From IMG/VR virus record IMGVR_UViG_2737471855_000005, positions 1 through 14,180 of that record: 14,180 nt of DNA; one strand, given 5' to 3'. The stretch comes from a virus. Lineage: Duplodnaviria; Heunggongvirae; Uroviricota; Caudoviricetes. Below are positions 1-3,000 of the stretch, piece by piece (position 1 is the first letter of the stretch; the number at the start of each line of letters is the position of its first letter). The position numbers were made by a program.

Positions 1-3000
1 TTGTACAGGCATTCACTGTAATGCCCAGGATCACCTTCTACAGCGTAATGGCGGTATTCTTTTCCCTGCATCCATGACTTTCTTCTGGCCCGCTCGATGG
101 TGCCGGGCTTTAGCCCTGTTGATGCAATAAGGACTCTCTCCGTACACCATTTGCTGGGGGTTATCTGATAGATGATTGTCTGCATGCCAACCTCATAAAA
201 CTTTCATCCACGGCAGTGGCACCACACTTCAAACATTCGCTTCACATCTTCTGTACAACACGGTGTTGTTTATGCAGCGAACAATTTTTACCGGGTAACC
301 GGCACTGTCGGTATACAGTTGTCCCTGATTAATCAGAGCGAACATTTTTTCTCCTGCTCTCTGAATAGTGAGAACTTCAGAGCCGTATGTTTGTAGCGGG
401 TTCAATACTGATAATTTCTGCTGAGATAAGCATCCCGGCAAGCCAGAGTTCCCCGGACAGGTCTTCATCCTGGCATATCAGTTCGCCAATATTAATGGTG
501 GCCATGATATCCGTTTTCCCTGTGCGCTCATCCAGGACTTCTTCATAAGGCAGCGTTGCGTACAGGCTTTCAATAGCGCAATTGATAACATCCAGTCCGG
601 TCAGATTGCCGCCGACAGTAACTTCGAATGTTTCGCGGTATTCCCATAGTCCGAAAGTTAATCGAACGGTTTGTTTTGCCATGCGTCCGCACGACGTCAG
701 ATTCGGGTCATAGTTCATTATTTGCGGTTGAGTATTCTGGTTGTTCATCTGATTTTCCATTAACCCGGCGGTTTGCCGGGCGTGTAAGTTATTTAATCTG
801 GATAAATGGTGTATTGGCACCACTGGTCATGTATTGCGGCAGTGTACCGTTCCACTTGTTGATGGCTTCCAGCTCCATGACGCCAGGGTTCTGGCGCAGA
901 GCTTCGCCGCGTAAACGAATGGCATCGGCTTCTGCCAGGGCTTTTGTTCGAATGGCATCAGCCTGTCCGGCAGCTTCTGCACGCAGCATGTTGGCCTCCG
1001 CTTCACGTTGCTTGACTTCCTGTTCGCGCTGCAGGGTTTTCTGGTTTGCCGTGACTTTGGCGTTAATGCTGTCGATAACGGTTGGTGGGTATTCCGGTTT
1101 ACCTACATAAGAGAGGCTCATTACCTGAACGCCGATGGGGGTCATCTCTTCCTGAATGTCTTTAAGTGCGGCATCCAGTAGTTCAGACTTGCCGCCGTCG
1201 ATAAATTTGTCGGTGGTCATTTTGCTGGCCAGTCGATTGAGTGCGTCGGCGATCTTCTGGCGCAGGTCAGTGGCGGTAATGTCATCCACGCCTTTGCGGT
1301 AGGTCTGAAACACCGTGGTAACTTTGGATGGATCAACTTTGTAGGCAACACCGATGTGATAGCCGATGGTTGTGCCGTCACTCATCTGGAAGCTGAACGG
1401 CTCATCGTAGGTCTTCATTTGTTTGAAGGTTGGGAAGATGTAAACTTCAGTATTCCAGCCAGTCCAGTAGCGACCAACACCGACCACCTCACCGACGCCT
1501 TTATCGTCGCCCAGTTTATTTACTTTGATGCCAACATTACCGGGTTCAACGCGATCGCAGCCGACAAGGCCAATGGTCGGCAGAACAATGGCTAAAGCAA
1601 AAATAATTTTTTTCATTTTTTATCCTTAGTGAAAGAAAGACCCTTGTAAATGGCATAAATGCAGGGCGGGGTCAGAAACGCCAGTGCAAAGCCAGAAGTA
1701 ACTGCTATCGTATCCTTCATGGATATAAGGAACGGAACGAGTAATCCGTAAATGCATGCGATAATTGCCAGTAAAATTACTATTGTGAAATACAGTCTCA
1801 TTGGTATGTGGTATCCCGATATTTTTAACTGACAGACAGCGCAATAAAGAGAATAATGATTTCTGTTATTGTCAGTACTGTGGCAAGGATTAAAAGCAGT
1901 TTTACTCTGCTTAATTCACGGTTGTTTTTCATATAAATGGTTAGTAAAAAACGGAAGAATTATATTCTTCTTAATATTTAATGTGTCACTGGCCTTCTGG
2001 CATACCATGAGTATTCAGGTCGTTAATCATTTCATCCAGAAGGAGTTCAAGCCCTTCTCGCCCCATGTCTGAAACAATGAAACCTTTATCTGGGTATGTA
2101 ATGAGCATTTTCTGATAAAGAAACAGCGCTCTACCCATTCCTTCTGCCTTGCCGTATTTTTGAATTAAATTCCATTCAATATACTGCTGTAAGGCAAACC
2201 GAATGGGGCCGGGATATATCGTCATAACCCCATGCTTCCCGTTATATATTACGGCGCGATCTGTTGTTCCGTGTTCGTTTGGGATATCAATAGTGCCATT
2301 CTTGTTTTCTTCTTCGTTGATGAATGTCGTCACGTACAACCAGCGCCACTGGGCTACCTTCATCTCAACAGGGAGTTTACCCAGTAATCCTGCATTGTCG
2401 GCTTGTGCGAGGCATTGAAGGATTTGCAAACCTTTCACATTAGGATGATCGAATTCACCTGCATCCAGACGGCGGATTGCGTCGTGATAATCAATAGTCA
2501 TACTGCCAGTTCGTATACCTGTGGCTGTTGCTTCAGCCTGGAATTCAGCGTATTGCATGATATTTACTCCTCATCTTCATCTGCTGGTGCAATAACGTCA
2601 TATCCTGCCTTTTCTGCAATAAACAGGAATGTTGAAAGACTTCCTACAAGTTCATCGTCATGAACATGACGAATTAATATTACTTTCCCGTTTTTGATGG
2701 TCAGCAATACTCTGGTTTGCTCGTGTTCTGCTGTTTTCTGATGCATTATTATCTCCCATATGCTTTACGCAGAAACAAGCAGGCAATATGCATGTAATTT
2801 TTCCCGTGCTGTGCAATAAGGCAGGCTGTTTTGTGTGATGCCTTATGTTTTATAAAGGTCATATAAAACCTCCTGTGGATTAAGGATGTGATAATCCCCG
2901 GCGATTAAGCCGTAATATATTACCCGGAGATGACTTGTTCTATTTAACTGGTTAGTTCTTTTTCAGCTGCTGCTTCAGCATAGCAACGTGCAAATTCAAG

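Follow-up and report, generated by a model that had tools for sequence, protein, structure and literature searches.

The window analysed here is a stretch of 14,180 nucleotides from a virus of the class Caudoviricetes (IMG/VR record IMGVR_UViG_2737471855_000005, positions 1 to 14,180), and the subject of this report is a pair of overlapping genes near its left end, which encode a 275-aa lipoprotein with an SPFH (Band_7) domain and a 62-aa membrane protein with two predicted transmembrane (TM) helices (Table 1). An earlier reading of the DNA sequence, referred to below as the original prediction, had described the larger product as an SPFH lipoprotein with the lipobox LVGC that is translationally coupled to a two-TM protein. 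Both descriptions are borne out. The 275-aa protein matches the Pfam family PF01145 (Band_7) with E = 1.2e-30 and 107.3 bits, against a cut-off of 23.6, over profile positions 2–176 of 176, and it matches PHROG 200 ("lipoprotein") with E = 1.2e-112. The sequence AAGGA lies 6 nt before its ATG, and the stop codon of the 62-aa open reading frame (ORF) overlaps this start codon.

Table 1. Positions of the gene pair and of other features in the window
Feature	Positions	Strand	Basis
SPFH/Band_7 lipoprotein gene, 275 aa	789..1616	-	ORF; phiP27 L05 homologue; RefSeq WP_000720005.1
Lipoprotein signal peptide, residues 1–20, lipobox L-V-G-C (17–20)	1557..1616	-	Sequence
SPFH domain proper, residues 22–208	993..1553	-	Pfam
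Long C-terminal helix, residues 178–242 plus 244–253	858..1085	-	Secondary structure of the AlphaFold2 model
ATGA stop/start overlap, 62-aa stop and SPFH start	1613..1616	-	Translational coupling
Two-TM hairpin partner gene, 62 aa	1613..1801	-	ORF; PHROG 1130
Hydrophobic 35-aa ORF, doubtful, outside the conserved module	1825..1932	-	ORF
GC-rich hairpin just 3' of the SPFH stop, without U-tract	763..781	-	RNA fold, -15.1 kcal/mol, z = -2.9; not in the terminator-scan output
Weak terminator-like hairpin with U6, between the upstream 190-aa gene and the module	1946..1970	-	Pattern scan
Best candidate promoter of the leftward operon that contains the pair	3897..3925	-	TTGACA-17-TAATAT (consensus scan)
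cI-like gene	3990–4709	-	
cro-like gene	4812–5069	+	

The N-terminus of the SPFH protein reads MKKIIFALAIVLPTIGLVGC followed by DRVEPGN, and thus consists of MKK, a hydrophobic core, the LVGC lipobox, and Asp at position +2. The lipobox fits the pattern [LVI][ASTVI][GAS]C, and Cys20 is nearly invariant, with at least 90% conservation in the family alignments, one of which contained 82 sequences. The predicted mature N-terminus is C-D-R-V-E, and among the 94 close enterobacterial homologues that were parsed, 89 have Asp and 5 have Glu at +2. In E. coli, Asp at +2 makes a lipoprotein avoid the Lol system and be retained in the inner membrane. By analogy, the SPFH lipoprotein, which has Arg at +3, would probably be kept in the inner membrane by its Asp at +2.

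An AlphaFold2 (AF2) monomer model, calculated from the 82-sequence alignment, had a predicted local distance difference test score (pLDDT) of 82.4 and contained an SPFH alpha/beta domain at residues 20–175, made of strands at 20–94, helices at 96–158, and a strand at 163–175. In this model the long helix at residues 178–242 and 244–253 corresponds to the wall helix of SPFH cages. On the C-terminal side of the long helix lies a conserved K-W-x-G-x-L-P motif, in which W255 is invariant or nearly so, and G257 and P260 are at least 90% conserved.

When compared with the PDB by Foldseek, the model aligned over its full length (probability 1.00, 244–302 columns) with HflC/HflK, PHB1/2, erlin1/2, stomatin, flotillin, QmcA, and the shoulder of the vault (MVP). 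The E-values were 8.6e-15 to ~1e-11 for HflC, HflK, PHB1/2, erlin1/2, and stomatin, and 5.3e-8 for QmcA, with a structural-alignment identity of 13–18% across the Foldseek matches listed. By sequence, HflK was the only solved relative (E = 1.4e-3). The cut-offs of the HflK/HflC equivalog models were all missed (TIGR01932 hflC, 22.8 bits against a cut-off of 134.4; TIGR01933 hflK, 19.6 against 159.4; NF008181, 17 against 660; NF008259, 15.4 against 427), and membership in HflK/HflC was rejected because these curated NCBIfam cut-offs were missed by more than 100 bits. In addition, HflK/C are two TM-anchored paralogues; the locus has just one SPFH gene, whose product carries a cleavable lipoprotein signal, and the neighbouring gene encodes the 62-aa hairpin and no SPFH paralogue.

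The window gene is an ordinary, already annotated member of its family. Its counterpart in phage phiP27, L05, is labelled "putative serine protease" or "lipoprotein", and the RefSeq names for the pair in near-identical prophages of Shiga toxin-producing E. coli (STEC) are "SPFH domain-containing protein" and "hypothetical protein". In deposited phage genomes the family repeatedly carries the wrong labels "serine protease", "putative transposase (fusion protein)", and "RIIB lysis inhibitor", none of which has support from the domain or fold results.

The 62-aa protein matches PHROG 1130 ("membrane protein"; E = 7e-23). It has hydrophobic helices at about residues 3–27 and 32–52, joined by the turn SMKDT, together with an N-terminal Arg and a basic C-tail, KGLSFTKDKK. 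The N-terminal Arg and the basic C-tail suggest, by the positive-inside rule, that both ends lie in the cytoplasm (N-in/C-in). In the alignment of the hairpin family, P23 and S27 are invariant and G37 is nearly invariant; these residues cluster at or near the turn, which carries the conserved motif P-x-L-I-S-x-x-[ST] and which is predicted to be periplasmic. No convincing Shine-Dalgarno sequence precedes the 62-aa ORF. The protein matched no Pfam family at E ≤ 0.1, and the hairpin family as a whole had no PDB relative and no consistent Pfam match. For 20 diverse partners, the Pfam families listed did not include NfeD, even with the limit relaxed to E ≤ 1. The identification of the partner as an NfeD protein was rejected, since neither an NfeD/OB-fold domain was found by Pfam nor a relative in the PDB.

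In P88, in Fraca, and in Salmonella and metagenomic phages, the two genes are packed together just as tightly. Among 73 diverse viral loci, the two genes overlap in 44 and are separated by a gap of ≤30 nt in 12 more, as judged from an approximate estimate of the SPFH start. The pair is present in P88 (P2-like), Fraca (Hendrixvirinae), RCS47 (P1-like), and elements of Pantoea, Lelliottia, and Symbiopectobacterium, as well as on contigs of ~92–109 kb (plasmid-sized) of Kluyvera and Yersinia pestis. Across these elements the mature SPFH protein is 84–92% identical and the partner 22–65% identical, with the topology and the turn motif of the partner retained.

The linkage was quantified with a hidden Markov model (HMM) built from 22 hairpins, which was run on 80 diverse IMG/VR loci on contigs of 4–518 kb. 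The family members of these loci were 49–81% identical to a divergent reference; use of this divergent query sequence gave the diverse set of loci, and earlier scans had returned mostly near-identical enterobacterial ones. The HMM found a hairpin with E < 1e-3 within ~0.7 kb upstream of the SPFH start in 69 of the 80 loci. As a control, all 8,924 six-frame segments of ≥40 aa in the 80 loci were searched, which yielded 73 matches. No locus had more than one, and every match was on the strand of the SPFH gene: 69 lay within ~0.7 kb upstream of the SPFH start, two ~0.8–0.9 kb upstream, and two just downstream. All 73 matches lay within ~1.3 kb of the SPFH gene, and there were none elsewhere among the 8,924 segments. 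These results indicate that the 62-aa hairpin family is a conserved partner tied to the SPFH protein. Homologous prophages, in which the original prediction proposed to look for the same pair, carry it very broadly, from phiP27-like, P2-like, and P1-like phages to the Hendrixvirinae, and 73 of the 80 viral loci have it.

Natural fusions of the hairpin to the SPFH protein were found as well. They make up about 18–19 of 142 full-length family representatives (~13%); four more were seen among 87 profile hits, and one, P0002 (347 aa), is a protein of E. coli. These fusions begin with an N-terminal extension that is homologous to the 62-aa protein. Next come a basic linker and a third hydrophobic segment, in most cases with a lipobox at its end, and then the SPFH domain. 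Such Rosetta-stone evidence argues that the hairpin and the SPFH protein work together. In addition, the topology of the fusions makes sense only if the ends of the hairpin are in the cytoplasm and the SPFH domain is in the periplasm. One cluster of apparent E. coli/Shigella fusions proved, on reading, to consist of partial SPFH proteins that had been mis-clustered.

Variants of the arrangement were seen in several loci. In RCS47, an unannotated ORF of 78 aa at positions 4776–5012 on the minus strand encodes a hairpin and overlaps the SPFH "lipoprotein" gene by 20 nt; an E. coli element related to RCS47 has both parts as the single 347-aa fusion P0002. The RCS47 locus lies between upl/plp and ban, which we take to be the place where P1 carries tciABC. 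In two 96%-identical copies from Shigella flexneri and E. coli (L005 and L006, ~4997–6001), an insert of ~770 bp splits the hairpin and SPFH genes, which do not overlap there. In the IMG/VR loci L124 and L136 the SPFH gene comes first and the hairpin gene follows shortly after it, and the hydrophobic segments are C-terminal in P0255 (344 aa), indicating that the order of the components is not fixed.

The SPFH family was found in large numbers in phages. A tblastn search of 50,697 phage records gave 411 carriers of an SPFH homologue, at least 538–547 IMG/VR loci have a family member, and an exhaustive phmmer search of 1.84 billion cluster representatives gave 2,766 matches with E ≤ 1e-3, 206 of them with E ≤ 1e-30, most being proteins of 270–300 aa with an N-terminal lipobox. 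The carriers include Bruynoghevirus, Vequintavirinae, Ounavirinae, phiCbK-like, crAss-like, and Lak phages as well as temperate phages, and the family extends to environmental phages (Caulobacter, crAss-like, and soil and water viromes). The region is matched in 670 of 5,426 complete E. coli genomes (~12%); of the places that match, 199 lie on plasmids. Six contigs were sampled for their surroundings, and five were phage or prophage. One is from a phage that encodes DNA polymerase III alpha and Thy1 (fused form), and another from a 168-kb phage with UvsY. Two places with a shared context belong to the replication module of a Salmonella prophage, and a further phage encodes ligase, sigma factor, primase, DnaB, and a T4-type baseplate. 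The last is a chromosomal site of Luteibacter with no obvious phage genes. Bruynoghevirus, Vequintavirinae, Ounavirinae, the crAss-like phages, and the UvsY-encoding 168-kb contig are groups that we take to be virulent.

The neighbours were surveyed over two genes on each side in 76 unique viral loci, considering the 25 most frequent families per flank. They were genes of nucleotide metabolism, replication, and recombination, and included NAPRTase, Thy1, RNR, dCMP deaminase, YqaJ, RecT, SSB, a clamp loader, and DnaB, and no holin, endolysin, or structural family was among these most frequent families of either flank. These results indicate that the SPFH subfamily is mainly phage-borne and lies among early DNA-metabolism genes. 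The premise from which the original prediction started, that SPFH proteins are usually chromosomal and paired with NfeD-type partners, is therefore wrong for this subfamily, given the 411 phage records and the non-NfeD hairpin.

The window itself is the early-left arm of a phiP27-like Shiga toxin (Stx) prophage. A 2.2-kb region has 98% DNA identity with several Stx2-converting phages and 90% with phiP27, and it is 99.9% identical in STEC prophages inserted beside yecN/cmoA. The pL-side placement in the original prediction was correct, because an integrase and an excisionase gene lie directly to the left of the window in a near-identical prophage and the cI-like and cro-like genes lie to the right of the pair.

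A consensus pattern scan of the 184-nt gap upstream of the pair (1802–1985) found no sigma-70-like promoter on the minus strand. Together with the strong candidate leftward promoter further upstream, this points to expression within the early-left operon, and the pair is probably transcribed from that early promoter and hence made on infection or induction. The candidate promoter is bracketed by TCAAT-N5-ATTGA palindromes at 3875–3889 and 3922–3936, and it may be under repressor control. The features by which a moron is recognized, a promoter of its own and an intrinsic terminator, were judged from pattern scans only; the stem at 1946–1970 has just 2 G-C pairs and is broken in strain A34.

Several other features surround the pair. 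The first gene after the leftward promoter (3150–3878, minus strand) encodes a 242-aa protein with two HTH_3 domains that belongs to PHROG 4836 ("CII-like regulator"). A 20-nt motif at 3936–3955 is repeated with 85% identity at 4714–4733, in the cI/cro intergenic region, and this motif and the palindromes are possible shared operators. Immediately downstream of the SPFH gene lies a DUF5406 gene (PHROG 3409; 377–748, minus strand), and further downstream, as annotated in a near-identical prophage, a truncated DUF4222 pseudogene (~241–345). The downstream neighbour of the pair is exchangeable, since an ORF6N-domain gene occupies the DUF5406 position in strain A34 and phage Fraca. On the plus strand, Rfam matches at gathering level were obtained for isrK (6089–6165, 54.9 bits) and C4 antisense RNA (6190–6277, 80.7 bits); in a near-identical prophage this block is annotated as Rha-family and BRO-N-domain genes. 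The arrangement is like that of the C4-controlled antirepressor (immI) module in P1/P7.

The original prediction had also allowed for a 35-aa single-TM peptide upstream of the pair. The ORF does exist, and it is open in 8 variants of 90–100% DNA identity, in which the substitutions are conservative. Its variable sites are distributed 6:4:4 over the codon positions, without third-position bias, and it is not preceded by a Shine-Dalgarno sequence. The ORF is not called by the annotation pipeline PGAP in a near-identical prophage, its exact amino acid sequence is absent from ~15 billion predicted proteins, and it has no Pfam match. An Rfam scan of positions 700–2100 was empty even at E ≤ 1, so that nothing marks the ORF as part of a type I toxin/antitoxin RNA locus of a known kind. 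P88, Fraca, RCS47, and the metagenomic phages have the pair without this ORF beside it. As a third component, the 35-aa ORF was rejected as unproven, having no codon-position bias, no Shine-Dalgarno sequence, no annotation call, and no linkage to the pair in other phage types.

Taking these results together, we consider it fairly probable that the pair, an intact phage module of two genes, forms a two-component membrane scaffold at the periplasmic face of the inner membrane, made early, in which a lipid-anchored SPFH ring or cage sits on a TM hairpin. In this scaffold, the 62-aa protein would insert into the inner membrane as an N-in/C-in helical hairpin, and the coupled downstream gene would deliver a lipoprotein that is held on the periplasmic face of the same membrane through Asp at +2. 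The SPFH domain and the helix of ~65 residues may then form a ring or cage, like those of HflK/C, prohibitin, erlin, and stomatin, that fences a patch of membrane. The hairpin would serve as an integral-membrane anchor or nucleator and could dock through its conserved periplasmic turn. As for the pay-off, the presence of the same module among the early genes of many lytic phages suggests that it is most likely a general early function in the host envelope, such as making the inner membrane more stable, insulating it, or sequestering one of the host machines in it.

Several observations weigh against this explanation. The AF2 model is of a monomer, its predicted template-modelling score (pTM) is just 0.58, and its last ~20 residues are of low confidence. 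Outside the Enterobacterales, the residue at +2 is mostly Ser, Thr, Gly, or Glu. The hairpin was not found in 7 of the 80 viral loci, nor in the phiCbK-like phage Karma, nor in phiE125. In addition, the SPFH protein PM0222 of a Pasteurella prophage, a possible relative, is expressed in the lysogen and occurs in outer-membrane vesicles (PMC9872710).

A bolder form of the scaffold explanation is that a phage-specific two-component cage is built on the periplasmic face of the inner membrane within minutes of infection and captures or walls off a defined host machine, such as FtsH, a DNA-entry channel, or a respiratory or secretion complex. We put it forward tentatively and would sooner expect it to fail than to hold. 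If true, it would amount to a widespread mechanism of host takeover or exclusion common to hundreds of phages, both lytic and temperate, that infect diderm bacteria.

Among the alternatives, superinfection exclusion or defence survives best, although we regard it as unlikely; the original prediction had named a membrane-based exclusion factor as its second possibility. In this explanation the cage would cover or sequester inner-membrane parts that incoming DNA needs for entry, and would so protect the infected or lysogenic cell. Established exclusion proteins, T4 Imm/Sp and HK97 gp15, are small, early-expressed, and envelope-located, and the products of the pair are predicted to share these properties. 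The pair occupies accessory positions in P2-like, P1-like, and lambdoid genomes, and its carriers are both temperate and virulent, both of which benefit from exclusion. In phage phiSH19, an SPFH ORF adjoins an annotated superinfection exclusion gene, an adjacency known from annotation only (PMC3220722). On the other side, none of the 5,027 models of PADLOC matched: in PADLOC-DB 2.0.0, no family reached E ≤ 0.1 for the SPFH, 62-aa, or 35-aa ORFs or the flanking ORFs tested, except for generic helix-turn-helix matches of the double-HTH protein at 3150–3878. A consensus scan found no dedicated promoter for expression in the lysogen, and no experimental report was found in the literature searched.

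The original prediction had named FtsH as a possible target. According to this idea, the phage cage would replace or join HflK/C around FtsH, alter the turnover of CII, CIII, Xis, or other substrates, and bias the choice between lysis and lysogeny. HflK is the closest solved protein by sequence, HflC/HflK are the top structural matches, and the SPFH domain would face the periplasm as that of HflK/C does. Host proteases are known early targets of phages, as exemplified by lambda CIII and T4 PinA. These points are offset by the failed HflC/HflK cut-offs and the 13–18% identity given above, and by the single lipid-anchored SPFH gene in place of a TM-anchored heteropair. Prohibitin, erlin, and stomatin match about as well as HflK/C, so that the fold does not single out FtsH, and the module is early in many lytic phages, which make no lysogeny decision. 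These results leave the FtsH proposal unsupported and weakened; we judge it distinctly improbable, and lambda-style control of lysis and lysogeny by the pair is unlikely. The idea is also not new, because the same proposal, for FtsH and CII, was published in 2016 for an HflK/C-like gene of a Pseudomonas prophage (PMC4936722).

It is very unlikely that the pair acts as a lysogenic-conversion factor on the animal host, in the form of a vesicle-released lipoprotein that is a Toll-like receptor (TLR) 1/2 agonist or a fitness factor. The precedent is PM0222 of P. multocida, a prophage "HflK/C-like" SPFH protein of 25–35 kDa that is expressed, is present in outer-membrane vesicles, and activates TLR1/2, and whose deletion attenuates virulence (PMC9872710); the window, too, comes from a Shiga-toxin prophage lineage. 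Against this, PM0222 is only a possible relative of the family, TLR2 stimulation is common to any triacylated lipoprotein, lytic environmental phages that infect non-pathogens carry the family, and Asp at +2 argues for retention in the inner membrane in E. coli.

We give just as little credence to a holin-like or toxic membrane effector restrained by the SPFH cage as a device for lysis timing or abortive infection: the hairpin has the size (~60 aa), the two TM helices, the N-in/C-in topology, and the highly basic C-tail of such a protein, but its similarity to Holin_SPP1 is faint (E = 0.17; 12.5 bits, where the cut-off is 27), other members match unrelated TM families, the pair never lies in a lysis cassette in the sampled loci, and the 1:1 natural fusions suit a structural partner better than a caged toxin. 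The class II holin candidacy of the 62-aa protein was rejected for the sub-threshold match and the position outside a lysis cassette in the loci sampled, although the topology fits.

In the literature searched, phage SPFH proteins appear as annotations and in speculation only. SPFH ORFs of T4-like phages were listed in 2006 (PMC1524935), and according to a paper of June 2026 it still "remains unclear" why a phage genome should encode SPFH (PMC13239085). Neither the hairpin partner nor the fusions were found described in the annotations or literature searched. The new content of the present analysis is modest and consists of a conserved, sometimes fused, non-NfeD hairpin partner and an early-gene distribution across phages, which define a variant SPFH system.

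SPFH cages, including those of HflK/C, prohibitin, stomatin, flotillin, and erlin, are under active structural study, and the contents of most bacterial ones are unclear. The phage version is compact, with a lipid-anchored SPFH protein and a 60-aa hairpin, and is carried by at least 411 sequenced phages. As a set of only two small genes, early ones in phages that are easy to work with, it is a simple system in which to ask what an SPFH cage does to a bacterial membrane and why a virus wants one. The FtsH/lysogeny story should not be attached to the window gene without experiments.

Compared with known systems, the phage protein shares with E. coli HflK/HflC (PDB 7vhq, 7vhp, 7wi3, and 9cz2; Foldseek E 8.6e-15 to 2e-14) the full-length fold of an SPFH domain followed by a long helix, and its SPFH domain would likewise lie on the periplasmic side of the inner membrane. 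The identity to HflK/HflC is 16–18%, and the phage protein is lipid-anchored, whereas HflK/C have an N-terminal TM helix. In place of the HflK/HflC heteropair, the phage system has one SPFH gene with a conserved two-TM hairpin partner and is phage-borne.

In the SPFH–NfeD operons (QmcA–YbbJ, PDB 8z5g; YqiJ–YqiK; archaeal stomatin PH1511 with NfeD PH1510), an SPFH gene is likewise tightly coupled to a co-oriented gene for a small membrane protein, and such coupling leads one to expect a two-component membrane complex. The phage partner differs from NfeD in being ~60 aa long and almost wholly membrane-embedded, with no NfeD/OB-fold. The orientation also differs, in that E. coli QmcA faces the cytoplasm, whereas the phage lipoprotein must be periplasmic.

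Eukaryotic stomatin and flotillin likewise combine a hydrophobic hairpin with a lipid anchor, and their cage fold matches, although the kinship in sequence is at the level of the SPFH superfamily only. In the phage system the hairpin either forms a polypeptide of its own or is fused N-terminally, in front of a cleavable lipobox; it is predicted to span the membrane fully and to lie on the side opposite to the lipid-anchored domain. The closest company of the window gene is that of the annotated phage SPFH lipoproteins, to which it belongs without material difference at the gene level: PHROG 200, phiP27 L05, phiE125 gp43, the "band 7 lipoprotein" of Caulobacter phiCbK-like phages, and the SPFH ORFs of the T4-like phages 44RR, Aeh1, and RB43.

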